A stretch of DNA of 28,204 nucleotides from a phage. The position numbers were made by a program, and so were the translations under genes. Positions 12,741-24,989 of the stretch are shown piece by piece. The stretch's first letter is position 1; each line of letters begins with the position of its first letter. The DNA lies in the NCBI GenBank assembly GCA_021454005.1, contig GCA_021454005.1_3939.2; one strand, written 5' to 3'. The notes beneath the pieces were generated by a model. The model did no database searches. It was not told where the DNA came from and was given only the letters and a program-made list of their open reading frames with translations.

Positions 12741-12767
12741 AAATAAAAAAGGCTCCCGAAGGAGCCT
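12741..12767 (-). terminator. terminator-like hairpin (GGCTCC-TTCG-GGAGCC then U-run on the minus strand) directly downstream of the endolysin gene
   Basis: perfect 6-bp stem 12751-12766 with an A10 run on the plus strand at 12741-12750. Confidence 0.55.
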
Positions 12768-12776
12768 ATGAAGATA

Positions 12777-13241
12777 TTACTTTGGATATACACTGTCAAG
12801 ATAAATGTCAGCTTCCATTCTACGTCTGTTTTTCAGGCCGTTTGAAGTGACCTTCTTACCTTTTACTGTAACCTTGTTCCACCACTGCATAGCTTCTGCA
12901 CAACCGACCTTATTACCAGCATTGTGGCGCTTGATAAATGTAGAGTCCTGCATAGCTGTGATACCAATGTTGTATGTTTCACTTACAAGTGCATCAAACT
13001 CATTCTGAGAAGTTGGAACCTTGATGGCTTTGTTCACTGCTGCAACGAACTTTTCAACATCTGCAAGAAGATACTGTTCAGCTTGTTCAGCGGTAATCTT
13101 CATACCCATCTTAACAGGCTTCCCACCAATACGAATTGTCCCATACCCGATTGTAGGGATTCCGGCAGAGTCTTCGTAAGCCTCTAACTTCAGACCTTCA
13201 AAGAACTTAATAGCTTCTAAACCTTTTCTTGAGAGTTGCAT
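12777..13241 (-). CDS. endolysin, glycoside hydrolase family 24 (T4 lysozyme-like muramidase)
   Basis: N-terminal motif EGLKLEAYEDSAGIPTIGYG matches the T4-lysozyme catalytic E...D...T region; GGAGG 5 nt upstream of ATG. Confidence 0.85.
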   Translation of the reverse strand: MQLSRKGLEAIKFFEGLKLEAYEDSAGIPTIGYGTIRIGGKPVKMGMKITAEQAEQYLLADVEKFVAAVNKAIKVPTSQNEFDALVSETYNIGITAMQDSTFIKRHNAGNKVGCAEAMQWWNKVTVKGKKVTSNGLKNRRRMEADIYLDSVYPK

Positions 13242-14125
13242 TATGCCTCCCCTGCTGGGTTAACTGTAACTGTTGCCGCATTAGATGTTACAGAGCCACC
13301 TGCGCCAGTCACTACACAGGTGTAGCTTCCTGCATCAGCAGCGGTTGCACCTTCTTTGGTGTAAGTTGCAGCAGTTGCGTCTGGGATGACTTCCTCACCT
13401 TTCTTCCACTGATAACCTGTCGCACCTGTTGCCACAACATTCAGTGTTAAGGTCTCACCTTCAGTGATTTCTTGATTGGTTGGTTGCTGAGTGATTACCG
13501 GAAGTGCATTCACAGTCACTGTTGCTGCATCTGAGGTAACACTTGTTCCACCCTCTCCAGATACAACACAAGTGTATGAACCAGCGTCAGAAGGTGCTAC
13601 TGACTGTTTTGTGTAAGTTGCAGAATTGGCACTAGGGATGTCCTCACCATCCTTCTTCCACTGATATCCAGTGGCGTTAGTTGCTAGAATGCTTAGAGTA
13701 AGTGTGCCACCCTCATTGACTGTTTGACCTGTTGGTTGCTGAGTAATTGCTGGTGGCTTAATAGCATCCTTCAACTTAGCATTCAACATTGAGAACGGCT
13801 TAACTCTTGCCAGCCATTCACAATAAACTGTATCAACGTCTTTACCATTGATAATTGCATATTGTAAGTCCATAAAGAAGTCAGACGTTCTCATTTGAGC
13901 ACCAACGCTGTAAAGCAACTCATCACTAAATGGAACTTTGTAGTCTGGTTTGTAGTCAAACTTCTTAACTTCTGCAATATCAGCTTCAGGCCAATACGAA
14001 CTATAGGTAAGTGGTAAAATAGCCTCTTGATATGTTCTAAAATCATATCTCTTACCAGCCTTTACGTTCGCAACGAAGCCCTTCACAAACTCTTTGAAGT
14101 CTGGGTAAGTCTTTGCTTTAATCAT
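13241..14125 (-). CDS. protein with N-terminal domain of unknown function plus two tandem Ig-like domains
   Basis: two about 85-aa repeats (ITQQPT.Q...EG.TLTL...ATGYQWKK....IP.A..ATYTK......DAGSYTCVV.G.GG..TS.AATVTVN) with the Ig-like Y.C motif; N-terminal 120 aa paralogous to CDS 14122-14493. Confidence 0.7.
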   Translation of the reverse strand: MIKAKTYPDFKEFVKGFVANVKAGKRYDFRTYQEAILPLTYSSYWPEADIAEVKKFDYKPDYKVPFSDELLYSVGAQMRTSDFFMDLQYAIINGKDVDTVYCEWLARVKPFSMLNAKLKDAIKPPAITQQPTGQTVNEGGTLTLSILATNATGYQWKKDGEDIPSANSATYTKQSVAPSDAGSYTCVVSGEGGTSVTSDAATVTVNALPVITQQPTNQEITEGETLTLNVVATGATGYQWKKGEEVIPDATAATYTKEGATAADAGSYTCVVTGAGGSVTSNAATVTVNPAGEA

Positions 14126-14493
14126 TTCTTTTTAGCCTCTAAATGTGCGTTTAGTCTAAAATAACCTTTGTGATGCGGAGATACATCACCAACAACAATA
14201 CCTTTAACCTTATAGCCTTTACCAATTACATACTGGATATCCATAAGGAATCTTCCAAGTCCAACAATATGGAACATTGGATATAATAGGTTCTCAGAAT
14301 CTGGAATATTGATTTCAGGTTTGTAGGTACGCTGTTCGATTGTTGGTGTAATATCTTCTTCAGGCCATTTGCTGAGTCTCCATGTCAAAGGTGTTGGGAT
14401 AACATCATTAAGGTTGTACCTTTCACCATTTTGCACGGAATTGATATAGGATTGTAGGAAGCAATAAAAGTCTTTTGCACTCTTAGCTTTCAT
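14122..14493 (-). CDS. hypothetical protein (123 aa), paralog of the N-terminal domain of CDS 13241-14125
   Basis: shared motifs MxKAKS..DF, G(E/K)RY, WPE(E/A)DI, YKP(E/D), F(L/F)MD(I/L)QY(V/A)I, LNA(H/K)L. Confidence 0.6.
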   Translation of the reverse strand: MKAKSAKDFYCFLQSYINSVQNGERYNLNDVIPTPLTWRLSKWPEEDITPTIEQRTYKPEINIPDSENLLYPMFHIVGLGRFLMDIQYVIGKGYKVKGIVVGDVSPHHKGYFRLNAHLEAKKK

Positions 14494-14540
14494 TAAGTAT
14501 CCTTATAAATAGTTAAAGGGGCATCAGCCCCTATTCACAC

Positions 14541-15131
14541 TTAAGCTTTGGTCTTAAGTAGGTTCTTAAGTTTTTTAAGATTCATACTCTCATCAAACTT
14601 AAAACCAAATCCATTGACATAATCAATGAACTCGGATTTCTTACTGAGTGACAATGCGTAACTCATATCAAAGTTCTTACTTGTTTCTGCGTCTGGACTA
14701 GAGTTCACATCAAATGAAATTTCCGTAGGCTCTTGCTTACTTTTTCTCATATTATCAACCAACAAACATGTATAGTTTGCTGGATAGAAATTTACACTAC
14801 CATCAACGTAGCTGTACTTATTATTATGGATAAGGTTGGAAAATACCTTAAGGAATGTTTCTGAGTCGTGGCAAACAAGTTTGAATTGGCTGCTCTCTCC
14901 AAGCGCAACTAATGAGTACGGACTTTCACTATCAAAGTCATAATTTTGATTCGATGCCGTTACTGTTACACGCATCAAGTTATTAGCAATAGTCTTCTGT
15001 TTAAAAGAATTTTGAACATAGTGAAGACCTCTATCACACTGATTGACTAGCTCTTTAAGCAGGTCATTTGCATATGGTGAATTAATTGATACAGAGCCAT
15101 CACTATTGTAATTAAAACTTACTGTTAACAT
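14541..15131 (-). CDS. hypothetical protein (196 aa)
   Basis: AGGAG upstream of ATG. Confidence 0.6.
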   Translation of the reverse strand: MLTVSFNYNSDGSVSINSPYANDLLKELVNQCDRGLHYVQNSFKQKTIANNLMRVTVTASNQNYDFDSESPYSLVALGESSQFKLVCHDSETFLKVFSNLIHNNKYSYVDGSVNFYPANYTCLLVDNMRKSKQEPTEISFDVNSSPDAETSKNFDMSYALSLSKKSEFIDYVNGFGFKFDESMNLKKLKNLLKTKA

Positions 15132-15750: not shown

Positions 15751-16122
15751 ATGAAAAACAGAACAAACAAAGGCCAGTTTAAAAAAGGCCAGTCTGGAAA
15801 CCCATCTGGAAGACCAAAAGGCTCTCGTAACAAAAGCTCACTTGTAAAAGCTCAACTGACCATTGATAATTCTGCTGAGTTTGCTGCAAAGTTGTTTGAG
15901 GCGGTTGTTACAAGGGATGCTGCTAAGCTTGCAGAGTTCGGTTTGACGACTGACGATGTAAACCTGAAGTCGATGATGGAGGCTGGTAAAACCATCATGA
16001 CTCACTCAGCAGGTGAGATGAAAGCGATTGCAGCAGACACTAAGAAGACCCCTGATAATGGTGGTCAGTCTCAGACAGATAACAAACCAACGTTCTCTGC
16101 TGTAGCGACTCTCAAAAAATAA
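15751..16122 (+). CDS. hypothetical protein with basic N-terminal motif KKGQSGNPSGRPKG (DUF5681-like, from memory)
   Basis: AAGAGG 8 nt upstream of ATG; N-terminus GQFKKGQSGNPSGRPKGSRNK. Confidence 0.6.
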   Translation: MKNRTNKGQFKKGQSGNPSGRPKGSRNKSSLVKAQLTIDNSAEFAAKLFEAVVTRDAAKLAEFGLTTDDVNLKSMMEAGKTIMTHSAGEMKAIAADTKKTPDNGGQSQTDNKPTFSAVATLKK

Positions 16123-16203: not shown

Positions 16204-17619
16204 ATGAGCGAATTATTTAAACATGCGCACCTTCATGCAGGTCGAACTGAAAATGGTGCTGTAAACCATACTTCATCAATGTCTGCTCTTGTAGACTTTT
16301 ACAAAGCTGCTGGTTCAAGCCGTAGCAACGTAGAAATCTTACCAGACCTGTTCTACAAAGCTTTGCGTGAGGATGTTGATGTTGCAGTTCGTATTTTGCT
16401 TCATATGCGAGATGTACGAGAAGGTATGGGTGAGCGTAAAGCCTTCAGAACTGTTTTACTTCAAGCGATTGAAGACAAAGTTTTAGAGCCTACGCAGGTT
16501 CTTCGCATTATGGATAAGATTGCAGAACTTGGTCGTTTTGATGACTTCAAAATCTTCGTAGGTACTCGTTTCGAGACAGATGCCTTCAAACATCTAGAAG
16601 CAGCATTACTAGACCCTGCAACAGCAGGTTTGGCGGCTAAGTGGTTACCACGAGTCAAACCACGTCATAAGCAGTTTGTAAAACGTTTCTGCAAGTTTGC
16701 CAACTTGAGTGAGAAAGAGTACCGCACACTGTTGTCTGCACTATCTGATACAGTTGAGCAAAAAATCTCTGCTAATGAGTTTGGTAAGATTGACTACAGT
16801 AAGATTCCTTCACTTGCTGCTGCACGTTACCAAAAACTGTTTAACCGCAAAGATGGAGAACGCTACAAAGCTTACATCGAGTCCTTATCAAAGGGTGAGG
16901 CTAAGATTAATGCTGGTGCTGTTTACCCATACGATGTAATTAAATCTGTTAAGCATGGTAATGCAGATGTTGCTAATGAGCAGTGGAAAGCACTACCAAA
17001 CTGGATGGCAGAGGGTGAAAACATCTTGTGTATGTCTGATGTTTCAAGCTCAATGTCTTGGGTGAATTTTGGTTCAATTACTGCTCTTGATATTGGTGTT
17101 TCACTTGCATTGTATGTAGCAGAACGTAATACAGGTTGCTTTAAGAATGAGTTGATGGTTTATTCAACAAACCCTCACTTCATCGAACTGAGTGGTGATT
17201 TACGAAACCGTCATCGTCAGGTGATGCGACACGTTGAATATGGCTCAACTAACTTACAAGCAGCTTTTGACCGTATTCTTGAAACAGGTAAAAGAAACAA
17301 CTTGACTCAGAAAGATATGCCAAGTAAGCTTATCATCTTCTCCGATATGGAGTTCAATCAGGTTGATGGAGCTAACGGTCGTACAAACTTTGAAGCAATT
17401 CGTAGTAAGTACAAAAAAGCTGGATACGAAATGCCTCAACTGGTATTCTGGTACTTAGCAAACCGTAATGGTACTTGCGAAGTATCTGTTAAGGATAACG
17501 GTGTGGCAATGGTATCTGGTTTTTCTCCAGCTACTTTAAAAGCTCTGCTTGGTGGTGAGAAGTTTGACCCAATCAGCGTAATGCTCAAAGCAGTAATGAT
17601 TGACCGTTATATCTGGTAA
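16204..17619 (+). CDS. vWA-domain protein (MIDAS motif D-x-S-x-S) with N-terminal region resembling DUF2828/TROVE-like proteins
   Basis: 471-aa ORF; DVSSSMS (MIDAS-like) at about residue 280 and downstream IIFSDMEF; N-terminal TENGA...SALVDFY...R..DVREGMGER pattern recalled from DUF2828-type proteins. Confidence 0.7.
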   Translation: MSELFKHAHLHAGRTENGAVNHTSSMSALVDFYKAAGSSRSNVEILPDLFYKALREDVDVAVRILLHMRDVREGMGERKAFRTVLLQAIEDKVLEPTQVLRIMDKIAELGRFDDFKIFVGTRFETDAFKHLEAALLDPATAGLAAKWLPRVKPRHKQFVKRFCKFANLSEKEYRTLLSALSDTVEQKISANEFGKIDYSKIPSLAAARYQKLFNRKDGERYKAYIESLSKGEAKINAGAVYPYDVIKSVKHGNADVANEQWKALPNWMAEGENILCMSDVSSSMSWVNFGSITALDIGVSLALYVAERNTGCFKNELMVYSTNPHFIELSGDLRNRHRQVMRHVEYGSTNLQAAFDRILETGKRNNLTQKDMPSKLIIFSDMEFNQVDGANGRTNFEAIRSKYKKAGYEMPQLVFWYLANRNGTCEVSVKDNGVAMVSGFSPATLKALLGGEKFDPISVMLKAVMIDRYIW

Positions 17620-17784: not shown

Positions 17785-17861
17785 CTCTGTTTAGCTCAGC
17801 TTGGTAGAGCGTTCCGTTTGGGGCGGTAAGGCCGGAGGTTCAAGTCCTCCAACAGAGACCA
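17785..17861 (+). tRNA. tRNA-Pro (anticodon TGG)
   Basis: hand-folded cloverleaf: acceptor CTCTGTT/AACAGAG, anticodon loop TTTGGGG, T arm GGAGG-TTCAAGT-CCTCC, CCA encoded. Confidence 0.7.
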
Positions 17862-17868
17862 AATTAAT

Positions 17869-17946
17869 GTTCCAGTAGACAAAATGGTAAAGTCACCACT
17901 CTTTCAAAGTGGATATCTGAGGGTTCAAATCCCTTCTGGAACGCCA
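17869..17946 (+). tRNA. tRNA-Glu (anticodon TTC)
   Basis: acceptor GTTCCAG/CTGGAAC, anticodon stem CCACT/AGTGG, loop CTTTCAA, T-loop TTCAAAT, CCA encoded. Confidence 0.75.
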
Positions 17947-17953
17947 GTTTTGA

Positions 17954-18025
17954 CAGAAGACCAATTACAGCAAGCTTAATCTACTCATCTGACACGAAAT
18001 CGGACAAAGAAGATATTTGGTCTGG
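17954..18025 (+). ncRNA. spacer element copy 1: CAGAAGACCAA..TACAGCAAG...TTGGTCTGG (terminal 7-bp stem AGACCAA/TTGGTCT)
   Basis: conserved ends and covarying stem shared with copies at 18120, 18507, 18594. Confidence 0.5.
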
Positions 18026-18036
18026 TCATTGAGAAT

Positions 18037-18113
18037 TGCGGGTATAGAGAAAGGGCGTCTCACATGTCTCATTAGCATGGTATCGGCAGGTTCGACTCCT
18101 GCACCCGCCTCCA
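18037..18113 (+). tRNA. tRNA-Met (anticodon CAT)
   Basis: acceptor (T)GCGGGT/ACCCGC(C) with one unpaired position, anticodon stem CATGT/GCATG, loop CTCATTA, T arm GCAGG-TTCGACT-CCTGC, CCA encoded. Confidence 0.6.
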
Positions 18114-18119
18114 ATTTTG

Positions 18120-18179
18120 CAGAAGACCGTATTCAGCAACAAAATACTTTTTGCGGATAAAAGAAAAAACACGGTCTGG
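18120..18179 (+). ncRNA. spacer element copy 2: CAGAAGACCGT..TTCAGCAAC...ACGGTCTGG (stem AGACCGT/ACGGTCT)
   Basis: same architecture as copy 1 with a compensatory change in the stem. Confidence 0.5.
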
Positions 18180-18190
18180 CAATGTATTAA

Positions 18191-18267
18191 GGTTAGGAAG
18201 CACATAAGGTATGTGCGGTCGCCTGTTAAGCGAATGGCACAGGGTTCGAATCCCTGACTAACCGCCA
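18191..18267 (+). tRNA. tRNA-Asn (anticodon GTT)
   Basis: acceptor GGTTAGG/ACTAACC (one mismatch at 7-66), D stem GCAC/GTGC, loop CTGTTAA, T arm CAGGG-TTCGAAT-CCCTG, CCA encoded. Confidence 0.65.
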
Positions 18268-18275
18268 AATTAAAT

Positions 18276-18363
18276 GTGTCGTTATCCCGTAGATGGTAGC
18301 GGTGGGGACTGTAAATCCCTTGTCATTGAGACTCGGTAGGTTCGACTCCTACACGGCACACCA
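18276..18363 (+). tRNA. tRNA-Tyr (anticodon GTA), long variable arm
   Basis: acceptor GTGTCGT/ACGGCAC, loop CTGTAAA, variable stem GTC-ATTGA-GAC, T arm GTAGG-TTCGACT-CCTAC, CCA encoded. Confidence 0.7.
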
Positions 18364-18368
18364 ATAAA

Positions 18369-18445
18369 GGCTATGTAGTTTAACTGGAGAAAATACTCCC
18401 CTGTCACGGGAGATGATGTGAGTTCAAGTCTCATCGTAGCCGCCA
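18369..18445 (+). tRNA. tRNA-Asp (anticodon GTC)
   Basis: acceptor GGCTATG/CGTAGCC, anticodon stem CTCCC/GGGAG, loop CTGTCAC, T-loop TTCAAGT, CCA encoded. Confidence 0.75.
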
Positions 18446-18506
18446 ATTTTGAGAGGGCTATTTAGCCCCTCCCTTAAAGAGTTCTTACGAGTATTCTTTA
18501 AAGGAG

Positions 18507-18580
18507 CAGAAGACCAAATACAGCAAGAATGTATGAAATTTCAAGCCAATTTAATTTTGAAAATTTAAAACTTGGTCTGG
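18507..18580 (+). ncRNA. spacer element copy 3: CAGAAGACCAA..TACAGCAAG...TTGGTCTGG
   Basis: same architecture; stem AGACCAA/TTGGTCT. Confidence 0.5.
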
Positions 18581-18593
18581 CTCAACAAATTTA

Positions 18594-18725
18594 CAGAAGA
18601 CCGTTTACAGCAAAACTTAAACAATCTATTTCTCCGGTAAAGAAAAGGCGAAGGTTCGATTCCTTCACTCGGCAGATGTCGAGTTGGTGTAATGGTAGCA
18701 CTTAAGATGATAAACAACGGTCTGG
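18594..18725 (+). ncRNA. spacer element copy 4 (long form) with terminal stem AGACCGTT/AACGGTCT, containing tRNA-half-like hairpins
   Basis: CAGAAGACCGTTTACAGCAAA at the 5' end and AACGGTCTGG at the 3' end; interior carries a T-arm-like hairpin, an acceptor-like hairpin and a D-arm-like hairpin. Confidence 0.45.
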
Positions 18726-18726
18726 T

Positions 18727-18870
18727 AATTATCTTTGTAGATAAGTTATTAAGCTTACATGTGAGTATGCGACCACAAAGGGTGAAAGGGTAAATTCTAG
18801 ATTTAAACCCAAAAAGGCACATCGCTACAGACCTTAAGCAAGTCTGGGTAGCTTATCTACAAAGATAATT
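18727..18870. repeat. 19-bp perfect inverted repeat (AATTATCTTTGTAGATAAG / CTTATCTACAAAGATAATT) flanking 106 nt
   Basis: arms at 18727-18745 and 18852-18870; could be a long-stem RNA or a miniature inverted-repeat element. Confidence 0.6.
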
Positions 18871-18874
18871 TAAT

Positions 18875-18950
18875 GGAAGTGTAGCAGAATGGTGATGCGG
18901 CAGACTTTTAATCTGACAGGCGATGGGTTCGAATCCCTCCACTTCTACCA
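18875..18950 (+). tRNA. tRNA-Lys (anticodon TTT)
   Basis: acceptor GGAAGTG/CACTTCT (G1.U72), loop CTTTTAA, T-loop TTCGAAT, CCA encoded; close paralog of the tRNA at 20101. Confidence 0.65.
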
Positions 18951-18954
18951 ATAT

Positions 18955-19031
18955 GGTTCAGTCGCAGATAAGGTAATGCAAGGGTCTCATAAGCCCTATG
19001 AATGTGGGTTCGATTCCCATCTGAACCTCCA
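18955..19031 (+). tRNA. tRNA with anticodon CAT (Met, initiator, or Ile2/lysidine type)
   Basis: acceptor GGTTCAG/CTGAACC, anticodon stem AGGGT/GCCCT (three G-C pairs), loop CTCATAA, T arm GTGGG-TTCGATT-CCCAT, CCA encoded. Confidence 0.65.
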
Positions 19032-19032
19032 A

Positions 19033-19108
19033 GCTGGTATAGTTAAGAAGGTTATAACACTCCCCTGATAAGGGAACATCGGTGGTTCGATTCCACCTAC
19101 CAGTACCA
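19033..19108 (+). tRNA. tRNA-Ile (anticodon GAT)
   Basis: acceptor GCTGGTA/TACCAGT, D stem GTTA/TAAC, loop CTGATAA, T arm GGTGG-TTCGATT-CCACC, CCA encoded. Confidence 0.7.
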
Positions 19109-19123
19109 ATTTCAATAAAGTTG

Positions 19124-19152
19124 TTGACATTGAGATGTGACTACTTTATAGT
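19124..19152 (+). promoter_or_regulatory. sigma70-like promoter TTGACA-N17-TATAGT inside the tRNA array
   Basis: hexamers at 19124-19129 and 19147-19152; about 200 nt of unassigned sequence follows before the next tRNA. Confidence 0.6.
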
Positions 19153-19355
19153 AACCTTAGTTTTCGTTGCGTAGCGTCTATTTTGCAAATTTAAAATAAA
19201 TGCAAACGACAATGTTTTTCTGGCAGTAGCTTGATAGGCTAAACACCAGTGAGGTCTTCCAATCCCTCATCAAAGAATTTGGCGTACTAGCCCACGGTAT
19301 GATTAATAAGGTGGGCATCTTTAAGGGCTTTCTAAGAGAGTCTTTAAAGATTAAT

Positions 19356-19432
19356 GCACCCTTAGTTCAATTGGATAGAGCAACGGTCTTCTAAATCGTT
19401 AGTTACAGGTTCGAATCCTGTAGGGTGTGCCA
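19356..19432 (+). tRNA. tRNA-Arg (anticodon TCT)
   Basis: acceptor GCACCCT/AGGGTGT, D arm GTTC-AATTGGATA-GAGC, anticodon stem ACGGT/ATCGT, loop CTTCTAA, T arm ACAGG-TTCGAAT-CCTGT, CCA encoded. Confidence 0.75.
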
Positions 19433-19450
19433 ATTAGTTAGCAGATTACT

Positions 19451-19490
19451 TAGACGACCTAAGCGGGTCTTCCTGTAGGGAGGTGGTCTG
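19451..19490 (+). ncRNA. possible degenerate fifth copy of the AGACC...GGTCTG spacer element
   Basis: TAGACGACC...GGTGGTCTG with 6 of 7 stem positions pairing; weaker match. Confidence 0.25.
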
Positions 19491-19574
19491 TATCTCATGT
19501 TTTCCAGAACATGTAAATAATCTGAGAAGGGGCTTTACAGTGTTGAGATAATACGGTAAGCTTCGAATTACAGT

Positions 19575-19657
19575 ATGGGACGATGTTAAGACTCTAAGGC
19601 ATGAGCAACGGCCTCCAAAACCGTTTCAAAGGGGTTCAACTCCTCCGTCCCATGCCA
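19575..19657 (+). tRNA. tRNA-Trp (anticodon CCA), atypical (about 7 extra nt between acceptor stem and D arm)
   Basis: acceptor ATGGGAC/GTCCCAT (7 of 7), anticodon stem ACGGC/ACCGT with loop CTCCAAA, T arm AGGGG-TTCAACT-CCTCC, CCA encoded; D region does not fold canonically by hand. Confidence 0.5.
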
Positions 19658-19670
19658 AAGTCTTATTAGG

Positions 19671-19758
19671 GGTAGGTAGCGGCTAATGGTAGCCAAACTG
19701 TCTTGAAAACAGTTGCCACTGTAGAGATACGGTGAGGGTTCGACTCCTTTACTTACCG
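19671..19758 (+). tRNA. tRNA-Ser (anticodon TGA), long variable arm
   Basis: acceptor GGTAGGT/ACTTACC, anticodon stem ACTGT/ACAGT, loop CTTGAAA, long variable arm, T-loop TTCGACT; CCA not fully encoded. Confidence 0.7.
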
Positions 19759-19914
19759 CCTAATAAGATTTACACCGTCCATGCTTGCTCGCATTTTCGG
19801 TTTATCCCTCGTGTATTGTCGTACACTGATAAAGCACCTAGTAGGTGTCACGGAGAAGAGATAATATCAAGCTCTCCAAAGGTTCTAGTCACCGGATTAA
19901 ACAAGACTATGCAA

Positions 19915-19935
19915 AGACCTATTTAGGTCTTTTTA
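19915..19935 (+). terminator. intrinsic terminator AGACCT-ATTT-AGGTCT-TTTTT within the tRNA array
   Basis: perfect 6-bp inverted repeat plus T5. Confidence 0.6.
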
Positions 19936-20014
19936 GAGGGCTTCTAAGGTTATTAGTCGCTTGTTGTGGAACCTTGTTGCTCAGGTTCTTAGAAGTTCTC
20001 TAAAAAGATTTAAT

Positions 20015-20093
20015 GGGAGATTGACGGCAACTTGGTAGACCTATCTCGCTTAGAACGAGATGCTTGAGGGTTCGAATCCCTTGTCTCCTACCA
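20015..20093 (+). tRNA. tRNA with anticodon TAG (Leu by the standard code) but a short variable arm
   Basis: acceptor GGGAGAT/GTCTCCT, anticodon stem (A)TCTCG/CGAGA(T), loop CTTAGAA, variable region about 4 nt, T arm GAGGG-TTCGAAT-CCCTT, A73, CCA encoded. Confidence 0.55.
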
Positions 20094-20100
20094 AATTAAT

Positions 20101-20176
20101 GCAGGTGTAGCAAAATGGTTATGCGGCTGACTCTTAATCAGTAAGACGATGGGTTCAATTCCCTCCACCTGTACCA
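20101..20176 (+). tRNA. tRNA-Lys (anticodon CTT)
   Basis: acceptor GCAGGTG/CACCTGT, anticodon stem GCTGA/TCAGT, loop CTCTTAA, T-loop TTCAATT, CCA encoded. Confidence 0.65.
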
Positions 20177-20182
20177 GACATT

Positions 20183-20258
20183 GGGGATGTAGTTTACATG
20201 GTTAAAACATAAGTTTTGCAAACTTAAGTACAGGGTTCAATTCCCTGCTTCTCCACCA
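20183..20258 (+). tRNA. tRNA-Ala (anticodon TGC)
   Basis: acceptor GGGGATG/CTTCTCC with a G3.U70 pair (Ala identity element), D stem GTTT/AAAC, anticodon stem TAAGT/ACTTA, loop TTTGCAA, CCA encoded. Confidence 0.75.
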
Positions 20259-20264
20259 ATTAGT

Positions 20265-20339
20265 GCATCCATAGTTTAAACGGGAAAATTACAGTCTTCC
20301 AAACTGAGGTTGAGGGTTCGATTCCCTCTGGATGCTCCA
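20265..20339 (+). tRNA. tRNA-Gly (anticodon TCC)
   Basis: acceptor GCATCCA/TGGATGC, loop CTTCCAA, T arm GAGGG-TTCGATT-CCCTC, CCA encoded. Confidence 0.7.
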
Positions 20340-20346
20340 AATTAAT

Positions 20347-20422
20347 GCTCCTATCGTATAATTGGCTATTACGGTTGCCTTGTAAGCAACTTATCAGGGT
20401 TCGAATCCTTGTGGGAGCACCA
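20347..20422 (+). tRNA. tRNA-Thr (anticodon TGT)
   Basis: acceptor GCTCCTA/TGGGAGC, anticodon stem GTTGC/GCAAC, loop CTTGTAA, T-loop TTCGAAT, CCA encoded. Confidence 0.75.
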
Positions 20423-20517
20423 ATTCAGAGGTCAAGTGAAAGACCGCTGGTGTCAACTGAAGACCGTAACAAATTCCACGGAGTTGAGTTAGCGGCACAA
20501 CTTCAGACCTCTTTCAT

Positions 20518-20592
20518 GCTCGCTTAGTTTATATGGTAAAACATCACCCTTACAAGATGAAGAAAAAGGTTCAAGTCCTTTAGTGAGTACCA
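20518..20592 (+). tRNA. tRNA-Val (anticodon TAC)
   Basis: acceptor GCTCGCT/AGTGAGT (two G.U pairs), D stem GTTT/AAAC, loop CTTACAA, T arm AAAGG-TTCAAGT-CCTTT, CCA encoded. Confidence 0.65.
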
Positions 20593-20593
20593 T

Positions 20594-20671
20594 GTTCCAG
20601 TATCCCAATTGGCAGAGGATGCAAGCTCAAACCTTGTATTAGTGACGGTTCGAATCCGTCTTGGAACACCA
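20594..20671 (+). tRNA. tRNA with anticodon CAA (Leu by the standard code) but a short variable arm
   Basis: acceptor GTTCCAG/TTGGAAC, D arm ATCC-CAATTGGCAGA-GGAT, anticodon stem GCAAG/CTTGT, loop CTCAAAC, variable region about 6 nt, T arm GACGG-TTCGAAT-CCGTC, A73, CCA encoded. Confidence 0.55.
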
Positions 20672-20676
20672 ATTTT

Positions 20677-20752
20677 GCAGGATTAGTTCAAATGGATAGA
20701 GCAACAGTCTACGAAGCTGTTAATAGGGGTTCGAATCCCTTATCCTGCGCCA
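20677..20752 (+). tRNA. tRNA-Arg (anticodon ACG)
   Basis: acceptor GCAGGAT/ATCCTGC (7 of 7), D arm GTTC-AAATGGATA-GAGC, anticodon stem ACAGT/GCTGT, loop CTACGAA, CCA encoded. Confidence 0.8.
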
Positions 20753-20769
20753 GATAAAAAGGTGATACT

Positions 20770-21012
20770 ATGCAAACATTAACAGTAGTTGAACATGAAA
20801 ACTGTGAGAATATTGAGTTTGTCAGGGTCATTGGTGTTGAACACCACATTTTCTTAAAAGTAGGGTACTTATGTGACCCCGCTAGAGTAGAAAGATTTAT
20901 ACGTGATTGTTTTGGTGGTAGACAGCTAAAGAGTGTTATTTTTGAGACAGTTTTACCAGAAGGTTTAGAAACGAATAATAACATTTATCTCCTTACAAGG
21001 ATTAGACGATGA
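20770..21012 (+). CDS. hypothetical protein (80 aa) embedded in the tRNA array
   Basis: AAGGTGA 5 nt upstream of ATG; stop overlaps the next start (ATGA). Confidence 0.55.
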   Translation: MQTLTVVEHENCENIEFVRVIGVEHHIFLKVGYLCDPARVERFIRDCFGGRQLKSVIFETVLPEGLETNNNIYLLTRIRR

Positions 21013-21566
21013 GATATTTAAAATATGCTTCATGGATTTTCCTAGCTTTGCTAGAACCATTAGCAGCAACCTTAGCAGTTATCTTAGCACCTTTCGTAGT
21101 TCCATTTTACAGTGAGAAGAAAGGCCACTTACCTTTCGGATTTAGATGGATGGAGACATATGACAACCCAATTGATGGTGACGAAGGTCATATCGAACGA
21201 TGGGCTAAGATTAGAAAGATTGGTAAGCTGGGTGTCTACATGCAGAGAGTCGGATGGCTCTGGAGAAACAAAGCTTATAACTTCTCTTACCATGTATTAG
21301 GAAGAGATGTAAAAGATGTTACTAAGTGGAAAGGTAATATCAACGTAAGTTCTGACCCTGAAGATAATCAGACAGGTTATCTCCTAATGTGGAACAGTAA
21401 TGCTTGGGGATTATTCGCTTTTATCCCATCAATTAAAGTCTTTGGTAAACAGTTTTACTGGAGAATTTATATTGGATGGAAACTAAAAAGTGTTGTCCCA
21501 GAAGAAAGAGCATTCTCAAGGGAAAGAGTTATGTTGGCATTCTTTATTCATCCACTGAGAAAGTAA
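21009..21566 (+). CDS. hypothetical membrane protein (185 aa, N-terminal TM segment)
   Basis: translationally coupled to the upstream ORF; N-terminus WIFLALLEPLAATLAVILAPFVVPF is hydrophobic. Confidence 0.6.
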   Translation: MRYLKYASWIFLALLEPLAATLAVILAPFVVPFYSEKKGHLPFGFRWMETYDNPIDGDEGHIERWAKIRKIGKLGVYMQRVGWLWRNKAYNFSYHVLGRDVKDVTKWKGNINVSSDPEDNQTGYLLMWNSNAWGLFAFIPSIKVFGKQFYWRIYIGWKLKSVVPEERAFSRERVMLAFFIHPLRK

Positions 21567-21574
21567 AGATTTAA

Positions 21575-21650
21575 AGGGGATTAGTTTACAAGGTTAAAAC
21601 CTCGGTCTTTGAAATCGAAGAAGTTGGTTCAATTCCAACATCCCCCGCCA
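21575..21650 (+). tRNA. tRNA-Gln (anticodon TTG)
   Basis: acceptor AGGGGAT/ATCCCCC (position 1-72 unpaired A.C), D stem GTTT/AAAC, anticodon stem TCGGT/ATCGA, loop CTTTGAA, T arm GTTGG-TTCAATT-CCAAC, CCA encoded. Confidence 0.65.
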
Positions 21651-21652
21651 AT

Positions 21653-21731
21653 GCTCCATTACTCCAATTGGCAGAGAGGCCAGACTTAAAATCTGTGTTA
21701 TGTATCGGTTCGAATCCGATATGGAGTACCA
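21653..21731 (+). tRNA. tRNA with anticodon TAA (Leu by the standard code) but a short variable arm
   Basis: acceptor GCTCCAT/ATGGAGT, D region CCAATTGGCAGAG, anticodon stem (C)CAGA/TCTG(T), loop CTTAAAA, variable region about 7 nt, T arm ATCGG-TTCGAAT-CCGAT, A73, CCA encoded. Confidence 0.55.
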
Positions 21732-21736
21732 AATTT

Positions 21737-21812
21737 AGCGGTATAGCATAACTGGCAATGCAACAGTCTCTGAAGCTGTCCTATTAAGGTTCAAATCCTT
21801 ATGCCGCTGCCA
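21737..21812 (+). tRNA. tRNA-Gln (anticodon CTG)
   Basis: acceptor AGCGGTA/TGCCGCT, anticodon stem ACAGT/GCTGT, loop CTCTGAA, T arm TAAGG-TTCAAAT-CCTTA, CCA encoded. Confidence 0.65.
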
Positions 21813-21843
21813 CTTCTAAGGGTTCTTACGAGAGTCCTTAAAT

Positions 21844-21919
21844 GTGGCCTTATCATAAATGGTAATGACCCATGCTGTGAACATGGTCTATACGGGTTCA
21901 AATCCCGTAGGTCACCCCA
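21844..21919 (+). tRNA. tRNA-His (anticodon GTG)
   Basis: acceptor GTGGCCT/AGGTCAC, D stem TCAT/ATGA, anticodon stem CCATG/CATGG, loop CTGTGAA, discriminator C73, CCA encoded. Confidence 0.75.
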
Positions 21920-21924
21920 ATTTA

Positions 21925-21999
21925 TAGTCCAAGTAGCTTATATGGTTAAAGCGCGTGTCTGAAAAACATGAGAAGAGGGTTCAAATCCCACTGGACTAC
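21925..21999 (+). tRNA. tRNA-Phe (anticodon GAA)
   Basis: acceptor TAGTCCA/TGGACTA (7 of 7), anticodon stem CGTGT/ACATG, loop CTGAAAA, T-loop TTCAAAT; D arm irregular; CCA only partly encoded. Confidence 0.6.
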
Positions 22000-22017
22000 C
22001 AATTTCAAAGGTGCTTA

Positions 22018-22752
22018 ATGAAAGAGATGACAGAACAAGGTAAGGAGATTTTTAATCTCTTAAAAACCGGTAAAGGGTTTTCTAACCCACTTATTACTGG
22101 TGCAGCAGTTCTCGGTGGAACCGTAGCTGCCTCTACATCACTTGTAAGCTCTATTAGTTCTGTAACAGACCCTACAATGCAGGAGAAACTTGTTGCTGCT
22201 GGACTTACAACAGTCCTTCTAAACAGCTTTACAACAAGCCTTACAAGCACTACAGCAACTACTAAGACCCTGACAGACTACGGTCAAAAATCTATTGATG
22301 AGTTTTCATCACGTATGCAGGTAGCAAAGGGATATTCCAATGTTATGGGTGCAGCAGGAGAACAAGTTGGTTGTACACCGTTCAGTGGTATTATGGGTGT
22401 TGCTACAGAATATGGTCAAAAAGCTATTGATACGATTAACAGTACACTAGAGAGTGTTAACGATGTATTAAGTGACTTACAAGACGCTATTGACAAGGGT
22501 CTTGATACTGTTTCTGATTTAGCTAACCAAGCTGTCAGTAAGATTAATGAAGGTATCTCAAAGATTACAGCTTATGCAGATGAAGTTGTGCAGATGATTG
22601 AAGAAGAAGCTGCCCTTATTGCAGAGTACCTTAAAACGAATATCAATGGGTTCTTAGCAGGTATCTTACCAGACTGGTTTGACGATGCCTGTAAAACTGG
22701 TGTAATTGACACTATTGCAACACCAGAAATGAAGAACGCATTACAGAAATAA
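22018..22752 (+). CDS. hypothetical Ser/Thr/Ala-rich protein (244 aa)
   Basis: ATG 22018 with AAAGG upstream; the ORF-track start 21955 lies inside tRNA-Phe. Confidence 0.6.
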   Translation: MKEMTEQGKEIFNLLKTGKGFSNPLITGAAVLGGTVAASTSLVSSISSVTDPTMQEKLVAAGLTTVLLNSFTTSLTSTTATTKTLTDYGQKSIDEFSSRMQVAKGYSNVMGAAGEQVGCTPFSGIMGVATEYGQKAIDTINSTLESVNDVLSDLQDAIDKGLDTVSDLANQAVSKINEGISKITAYADEVVQMIEEEAALIAEYLKTNINGFLAGILPDWFDDACKTGVIDTIATPEMKNALQK

Positions 22753-22754
22753 AT

Positions 22755-22847
22755 GGAAGATTAACCCTAAAAGGTAAGGGAGCAGTTTGCTAAACTGCCA
22801 GTAGCTGAGAAATCGGTGTACCAGTTCAAGTCTGGTATCTTCCTCCA
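22755..22847 (+). tRNA. tRNA-Ser (anticodon GCT), long variable arm
   Basis: acceptor GGAAGAT/ATCTTCC (7 of 7), anticodon stem GCAGT/ACTGC, loop TTGCTAA, long variable arm, T arm ACCAG-TTCAAGT-CTGGT, CCA encoded. Confidence 0.75.
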
Positions 22848-22851
22848 ATTT

Positions 22852-22927
22852 GAATCCGTGACAGAAATGGCTATGTGCCTGTCTGCAAAACAGGTTTATA
22901 AGGGTTCGAGTCCCTTCGGATTCTCCA
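22852..22927 (+). tRNA. tRNA-Cys (anticodon GCA)
   Basis: acceptor GAATCCG/CGGATTC (7 of 7), anticodon stem CCTGT/ACAGG, loop CTGCAAA, T arm AAGGG-TTCGAGT-CCCTT, CCA encoded. Confidence 0.8.
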
Positions 22928-23350: not shown

Positions 23351-23371
23351 TTCTATTTGCGGAGGCGCTTA

Positions 23372-24973: not shown

Positions 24974-24989
24974 TAGCTAGGTGAGAAGA

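Follow-up and report, generated by a model that had tools for sequence, protein, structure and literature searches.

The 28,204-nt stretch of phage DNA analysed here (NCBI GenBank assembly GCA_021454005.1, contig GCA_021454005.1_3939.2; the whole stretch is hereafter called the window) carries on its minus strand a tandem pair of related genes followed by a lysis gene. The first of the pair encodes a protein of 123 amino acids (aa) (14122..14493) that falls in phrog_4463, and the open reading frame (ORF) directly downstream of it encodes a protein of 294 aa (13241-14125), in which a capsid-binding domain (CapBD; residues 1-120, 13766..14125) is followed by two immunoglobulin (Ig)-like domains (residues ~123-207, 13505..13759, and ~208-292, 13250..13504). 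The third gene encodes a GH24 endolysin of 154 aa (12777..13241), which matches PF00959 over residues 13-143 (E=6.7e-41) and belongs to the endolysin family phrog_7. The region shares 96-98% identity with numerous genomes of Felixounavirus, a group of Felix O1-like myophages whose hosts are E. coli, Salmonella and Shigella, and we assign the window to this genus. Here we argue that the longer protein is the capsid decoration protein known as Hex-Dec or gp20, an identification that we regard as practically certain, and that the shorter one is, very probably, a stand-alone copy of its capsid anchor.

An original prediction, made from the letters of the window without database searches, had proposed that the two minus-strand genes are tandem paralogs that arose by duplication, and our comparisons bear this out. 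BLASTP pairs residues 1-99 of the 123-aa protein with residues 2-100 of its longer neighbour (35% identity, 101 aa, E=1e-15), and the family profiles cross-match, phrog_3995 recovering the short protein at 4e-15 and phrog_4463 the long protein at 6e-16. When 48 small proteins are aligned with 46 Hex-Dec anchors, 33 positions, mostly in the core, are invariant and common to both clades, and the shared motifs to which the prediction had drawn attention all lie within such columns. Judged by sequence, then, the 123-aa and 294-aa ORFs are true paralogs. The prediction was also right that the stop codon of the Ig-like gene overlaps the start codon of a GH24 endolysin (TAATG, around 13241).

The identity of the 294-aa protein rests on its match to two solved capsids. 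phmmer searches of the PDB aligned it from residue 1, over the full N-domain and the Ig repeats, with chain 9ncf_S of phage Bas63 (E=2e-248) and chain 9c2d_S of phage Sf14 (E=1.5e-164), and its anchor is 96-97% identical to that of Bas63. Two stretches of the protein, at about 124-207 and 209-288, are each recognised by Pfam Ig_3, Ig_2 and I-set, and the AlphaFold model (predicted local distance difference test, pLDDT, 91) shows an alpha/beta N-domain followed by beta-sandwiches at ~126-206 and 210-289, confirming the two Ig-like domains that had been predicted. Both capsids were solved by cryo-electron microscopy (cryo-EM), the decoration protein being chain S of 9NCF, named Hex-Dec, in Bas63 (PMC12609058) and gp20, chain S of 9C2D/9C3A, in Sf14 (PMC11821841). 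Hex-Dec/gp20 is described as a Hoc-like monomer whose N-terminal ~118 aa constitute the capsid-binding domain; this domain is seated centrally in 60 of the 80 hexamers of the T=9 head, the pentamer-proximal ones, those on the three-fold axes, 20 in number, are reported as empty, and one to four Ig-like domains project outward (PMC12609058; PMC11821841). Arg79 and Arg107 of Sf14 gp20 are reported to form salt bridges with Asp221 of the capsid protein, and the authors ascribe the selectivity of the decoration to an altered Asp221 geometry in the three-fold hexamers (PMC11821841). Both arginines are kept in the window protein (AQMR79TSD and LAR107VKPF) and are invariant in 46 homologues. Mass spectrometry has also found the Felix O1 orthologue, gp36 (listed at 31.6 kDa), in virions.

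The window protein can thus be taken as a direct orthologue of Bas63 Hex-Dec and Sf14 gp20, with the same CapBD, arginines, Ig repeats and lysin-adjacent position. By homology to the solved structures, its N-terminal ~120 aa would dock as a monomer into the acidic hexamer centre, where Arg79 and Arg107 would bridge to capsid-protein aspartates, and the two outward Ig-like domains would probably provide weak adhesion. Orthology, together with the presence of Felix O1 gp36 in virions, would place it at the centres of the pentamer-proximal hexamers. It carries two Ig-like domains, as against four in Bas63 and three in Sf14, and across orthologues the repeat number runs from one (210 aa) through two (294 aa) and three (372-377 aa) to four (460 aa), a variation already described in both structure papers (PMC12609058; PMC11821841). 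Ig1 and Ig2 of the window protein are identical at 56/87 positions (64%), which is consistent with gain and loss of repeats by recombination. The long gene is usually annotated 'tail protein' in Felixounavirus genomes, and this label is wrong. Correction of this widespread mis-annotation apart, the long gene offers nothing new, its structure and location having been published in 2025.

Hex-Dec resembles T4 Hoc in being a monomeric, non-essential decoration of the hexamer centre in which a series of Ig-like domains is borne by a small capsid-binding domain. In Hoc, however, the anchor lies at the C-terminus and in Hex-Dec at the N-terminus, and the Bas63 authors describe the Hex-Dec anchor fold as larger than, and topologically distinct from, that of Hoc (PMC12609058). 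PHROG 'Hoc-like head decoration' profiles match only residues 120-292 of the 294-aa protein, its Ig region, and fold searches with the anchor model returned no Hoc chain among the matches listed. With its reversed domain order and different anchor fold, Hex-Dec is a functional counterpart of Hoc that does not belong to the Hoc family. The PDB 'Decoration protein' chains of T5 pb10 (5lxk_A and 8zvi_a) likewise match the Ig region only, and no sequence or fold match was found between the anchor domains of pb10 and Hex-Dec. To our knowledge, no anchor-only paralog of Hoc has been described.

Such a paralog of Hex-Dec is what the 123-aa protein appears to be. It matches no Pfam family (E<=1) and has a PHROG of its own to which no function is assigned. 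Its only sequence matches in the PDB are the CapBDs of 9ncf_S and 9c2d_S (E=6e-12), and a Foldseek search with its AlphaFold model (pLDDT 74) matched only the same two chains, at a template modelling (TM) score of 0.65, the next hit having E~0.75. The helix-helix-strand-strand order of the model agrees with that of the N-domain of the long protein, and the chain ends 3-5 residues past the anchor domain, with no Ig-like display repeats. There is little doubt, on these grounds, that the protein is a CapBD paralog and a stand-alone copy of the capsid anchor; relative to Hex-Dec/gp20, it shares the anchor only and lacks both the Ig-like domains and the two arginines. Equivalent genes are ORF37 of Felix O1, gp021 of Sf14, bas63_0125 of Bas63 and agp126 of SUSP1. 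Some records, and UniRef, label the small paralog 'tail protein', others 'hypothetical'; the former label implies that automated annotation had detected its likeness to the neighbouring gene. Neither structure paper models or mentions the small protein, gp21 does not figure in the Sf14 supplement, and the paralogy goes unremarked in both papers, in the annotation of the SUSP1 screen discussed below and in other searchable papers.

The small gene lies directly upstream of Hex-Dec in four lineages, namely Felixounavirus, Mooglevirus, Suspvirus (in EP1 it is present but unannotated) and an 87-kb metagenomic relative, in which identity falls to 45%, and 233 of 253 phage records carry it intact. 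An exhaustive profile search covering 1.84 billion representatives returned just 12 proteins of the family, which on this count would be tiny and confined to Ounavirinae-like phages. A Felixounavirus-like record bears the name 'Staphylococcus phage SA1', and two entries for the small paralog (P0008, P0051) are filed under Escherichia coli; these are probably phage contigs that were mislabelled or are contaminants.

A neighbour-joining tree groups all small proteins in one clade and all Hex-Dec anchors in a second, which points to a single duplication. Kolesnikvirus and the metagenomic loci L013 and L012 have a single-copy relative in the same slot, between a ~200-aa gene and the lysin gene. 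The Kolesnikvirus gene (Erwinia phages phiEa104 and Fifi318, gp116 in the latter) joins a homologous N-terminal anchor to a C-terminal BIG2 module, the L013 gene ends in a Lys/Ser-rich tail, and the single-gene metagenomic protein P0104 likewise combines a CapBD with a low-complexity Lys/Ser-rich tail in place of I-set Ig domains. These single-copy proteins are recovered with profile E values from 2e-9 to 1e-4, and also by a match in BFVD. We take them to represent the state before duplication, which would have occurred once within Ounavirinae, after the Kolesnikvirus split. Because the single-copy relatives already carry a C-terminal module, the small gene is more parsimoniously read as a derived, anchor-only duplicate. 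The original prediction had it the other way round, the downstream copy having gained its Ig-like domains; the relatives in the same slot speak against this, and the long copy need not have acquired them later.

Several measures indicate that the small gene is functional and under purifying selection. The mean ratio of nonsynonymous to synonymous substitution rates (dN/dS) is 0.13 for the small gene (26 pairs compared, synonymous divergence reaching about 1.2), as compared with 0.04 for the CapBD of Hex-Dec, 0.18 for Ig1 and 0.08 for the lysin gene. The C-terminal half of the small protein, which bears the contact loops, is its most conserved part and is nearly invariant between genera. The 38 positions that are fixed differently between the two clades are likewise concentrated in the C-terminal half. 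The position of Arg79 is an invariant Gly in all 48 small proteins (VGLG), and that of Arg107 is Gln or His in Felixounavirus, Mooglevirus and Suspvirus; in P0099, the deepest small-protein lineage, the region reads PRKYGY and its alignment is ambiguous. Lys109 is the same in every member of the family, and some single-copy outgroup anchors also lack Arg79 and Arg107. Net charge, compared between the small protein and the Hex-Dec anchor, was inconsistent between genera and uninformative for binding. The fixed differences are best read as a changed but conserved specificity, not as decay.

The gene has nevertheless been lost once. Nineteen records, which make up a single natural Felixounavirus lineage that includes REP9, share one deletion junction in it. 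At 2806-2997 of REP9, and in the 18 other records, a pseudogenised remnant of the small paralog is present, with the start codon changed from ATG to ATA, frameshifts and a deletion of ~220 bp. The CapBD of REP9 Hex-Dec is unchanged despite this loss, and phages of this lineage are ready-made deletion mutants of the small gene. In addition, both agp125 (Hex-Dec) and agp126 scored 'Not Fit' in the CRISPRi-ART screen of SUSP1. Together, the deletion lineage and the screen mark the small gene as dispensable; false negatives do occur in CRISPRi-ART, because the lysozyme also scored 'Not Fit'.

Published data on expression and virion composition bear on both paralogs. By reverse transcription PCR (RT-PCR), Felix O1 ORF36 and ORF37, the equivalents of Hex-Dec and the small gene, belong to the class that is maximal at 60 min, along with the portal, baseplate and fibre genes, while ORF35 (the lysin gene) and ORF38 belong to the 25-min class. 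The virion proteome of Felix O1, tabulated as the top 17 proteins with at least 25% coverage, does not list gp37, though gp36 and proteins of 9.7-13.7 kDa were detected. The virion set of VpaE1, as we infer it from the text of the paper, equals that of Felix O1 plus three unrelated additions, among which the small protein does not figure, and the virion table of Sf14, restricted to proteins with assigned roles, lists gp20 and not gp21. The Bas63 paper reports no density on the other hexamers (PMC12609058), and both Bas63 and Sf14 encode the small gene; their maps are icosahedrally averaged, which would blur a monomer on a symmetry axis. Reported in neither proteomes nor maps, the small protein does not appear to be a stable component of the virion, imperfect as these negatives are. 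The alternative offered by the original prediction, that of a virion decoration protein unrelated to the lysin, holds for the 294-aa protein, which is the solved Hex-Dec/gp20.

How the pair should be understood as a whole is less certain. We somewhat favour the view that it comprises a capsid decoration gene and an anchor-only duplicate whose product is an accessory of head decoration. More tentatively, the likeliest role of the small protein would be that of a late, non-virion (or at most sub-stoichiometric) morphogenesis factor that assists this decoration. According to this model, the small protein keeps the anchor fold and its hydrophobic core and dispenses with the display domains, its contact loops having been remodelled and then fixed. 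It would bind the hexamer centre in a state or position that Hex-Dec leaves free, for example in the prohead or, transiently, at the 20 three-fold hexamers; alternatively, it would bind Hex-Dec itself. It would thereby modulate where or when Hex-Dec loads, and would be non-essential, as Hoc-type decorations usually are.

Several points weigh against this interpretation. Any binding partner of the small protein is inferred, and its absence from virions is drawn from proteomes that were thresholded or incompletely reported and from symmetry-averaged maps in which an on-axis monomer would be blurred. Loss of Arg79 and Arg107 is no proof that capsid binding has been lost, given the outgroup anchors that lack both and the invariance of Lys109. 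Moreover, the AlphaFold model of the small protein is of only moderate confidence, and the dispensability of the gene in SUSP1 is subject to the false negatives of the screen.

The most serious rival to an accessory of head decoration is that the small protein has been neofunctionalised off the capsid and now uses the old anchor fold to bind another target, such as a host factor, a component of defence or counter-defence, or some other phage protein, its tie to Hex-Dec being one of ancestry only. We consider this unlikely. In its favour, the small protein has evolved faster than the Hex-Dec anchor, with 45% as against 57% identity across the deepest split, 19 as against 4 substitutions relative to Bas63, and a dN/dS of 0.13 as against 0.04; its 38 fixed differences include both capsid-contact arginines; it is missing from the virion lists; and both a laboratory screen and one natural lineage show it to be dispensable, as is often the case for accessory genes of host interaction. 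However, it remains strictly adjacent to Hex-Dec, with overlapping start and stop codons, across four lineages, it is expressed in the same late class, neither Pfam nor PHROG gives any signal of a defence-related or other domain, and the family is found only in Ounavirinae-like phages (12 of the 1.84 billion representatives).

A different possibility is that the two paralogs divide the hexamer classes of the T=9 head between them, Hex-Dec occupying the 60 pentamer-proximal ones and the Ig-less paralog recognising the differently shaped centres of the 20 three-fold hexamers, or of prohead hexamers. Such a division strikes us as improbable. Were it correct, the paralog could be either a hidden cap erased by averaging or a gatekeeper, acting transiently, that holds Hex-Dec to its 60-site pattern, and the site selectivity of decoration would be set by a dedicated paralog, not by capsid geometry alone. 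The first of these variants can be put in a broader form, in which the small protein would remain on the virion as a second decoration, devoid of Ig domains, capping three-fold hexamers, pentons or portal-proximal capsomers, and would have been missed owing to symmetry averaging and to its small size and low copy number. It has the same fold as the anchor that sits at the hexamer centre, exactly one hexamer class is left vacant by Hex-Dec, expression is late, and the contact-loop half is the most conserved. The Sf14 authors trace the selectivity of Hex-Dec to the geometry of Asp221 in the three-fold hexamers, and it is precisely the regions of Arg79 and Arg107 that have been remodelled and fixed in the small protein. 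Yet the Bas63 paper sees no density on the other hexamers of a phage that encodes the gene, the three-fold hexamer centre of Sf14 was modelled with nothing reported bound (PMC11821841), and the protein is not in the virion lists of Felix O1, VpaE1 or Sf14 though the 12-copy portal and proteins of 10-14 kDa were detected. A resident cap is therefore doubtful in our judgement.

That the duplication left the small gene as a relic, decaying or without function, is very unlikely. Its loss from one lineage, where the Hex-Dec anchor has not changed, and its 'Not Fit' score in SUSP1 would be expected of a remnant, but a dN/dS of 0.13 sustained over such synonymous divergence, a frame that is intact in nearly all records and in the lineage at 45% identity, and a C-terminal half that hardly varies between genera would not. 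Least credible is the proposal of the original prediction that both proteins are a wall- or peptidoglycan-binding accessory pair for the GH24 endolysin: it draws on the adjacency of the genes, the overlap of the Hex-Dec stop with the lysin start and the synteny of CapBD gene and lysin throughout Ounavirinae, but cryo-EM and virion proteomics place the long protein on the capsid, wall-binding domains (LysM, SH3, PG_binding and the like) are absent from both (Pfam at E<=1 gives Ig-type matches only in the long protein and none in the short one), the shared N-terminal domain is a capsid anchor, and the Felix O1 lysin gene is expressed in an earlier class than ORF36 and ORF37. The prediction itself had named a known virion fold and location of both proteins in the virion as the findings that would speak against such a pair; the long protein has both, the short one the fold without a virion report. 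As far as the evidence goes, the lysin is a neighbour of Hex-Dec with no functional partnership.

The locus, then, consists mostly of known biology together with one small, new and testable element. The useful part is the small gene, a conserved, late-expressed, anchor-only copy that was overlooked in both structure papers. Felix O1-type phages find use in the diagnostics and biocontrol of Salmonella, and a minimal capsid anchor of this kind could lend itself to phage display on them.

The junctions within the three-gene unit are tight. The small gene and the Hex-Dec gene share a stop-start overlap, ATGA, at 14122-14125, and the Shine-Dalgarno sequence (which is conserved) and start of the Hex-Dec gene sit within the 3' end of the small gene, an arrangement that suggests translational coupling of the two. 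The TAATG overlap would couple the lysin gene translationally to Hex-Dec in the same way. A programmed frameshift that would fuse the small protein to Hex-Dec was considered, because an A-AAA-AAG-like run precedes the overlap in Felixounavirus, and was rejected: the run is absent in Mooglevirus, the frame relation differs in Suspvirus EP1, and the 31.6 kDa of Felix O1 gp36 is the unfused size. Downstream, a strong intrinsic terminator (AGGCTCC-TTCG-GGAGCCT followed by a T-run; 12745..12767, minus strand), recognised by a terminator scan and in the sequence itself, lies 3' of the lysin gene and is predicted to close the unit of small paralog, Hex-Dec and lysin.

Upstream of the small gene lies a conserved neighbour on the same strand (14541..15131), which encodes a 196-aa protein of phrog_4034 with no assigned function and no Pfam family match. 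A protein of this type (~185-205 aa) adjoins the CapBD gene upstream in each of the Ounavirinae lineages examined, with or without the small paralog, and homologues are present in L010, L012, L013 and L018. The idea that it might be a partner resembling T4 Inh, raised by a faint PF26097 (Phage_Inh_N) flag on the L013 homologue, was dropped, since hmmscan at E<=10 found nothing in four homologues. Between this gene and the small paralog, a GC-rich hairpin (AGGGGC-TGAT-GCCCCT followed by TTT; 14515..14532, minus strand) precedes an AAGGA ribosome-binding site at 14500-14504. The hairpin is found at the same position in all six of the lineages aligned, has a fold z-score of -3.1 and resembles an intrinsic terminator; both it and the post-lysin terminator are annotated as terminators in phage Mordin. 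A scan for sigma-70 promoters found fewer sites in the region than in shuffled sequence and gave no usable promoter call. Some 10 kb separate the Hex-Dec locus from the structural genes, the terminase gene being at 23357 and the portal gene at 24981, and the Bas63 paper likewise notes that the decoration gene is distant from this module (PMC12609058).

Some further features of the window lie on the plus strand. A 123-aa DUF5681 protein (15751-16122; PF18932, 7e-14) with no assigned function is encoded divergently from the Hex-Dec operon, and at the corresponding position of SUSP1, agp130 (372 nt) scored 'Fit' in the CRISPRi-ART screen; should the two be orthologous, this would be an important gene without a known role. 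The next gene (16204-17619) encodes a 471-aa protein with DUF2828 and DUF7788, called 'RNA-binding protein' in RefSeq relatives, and stands immediately upstream of a tRNA cluster. The same arrangement recurs at every Ounavirinae-like locus examined (L010, L013, Sf14 and Mordin), and a functional link between the protein and the tRNAs seems possible. The cluster itself (17785-22927) comprises 26 tRNA genes by ARAGORN, 24 of which also pass the Rfam gathering threshold; published counts are 22 for Felix O1 and 23 for wV8. One of the 26, tRNA-Arg(tct) at 19356, is missing from the ASO1A annotation of the same region. The GTG start of a 265-aa DUF7217 ORF (21955-22752) overlaps tRNA-Phe (21926-22001), and the true start of this ORF is probably further downstream.

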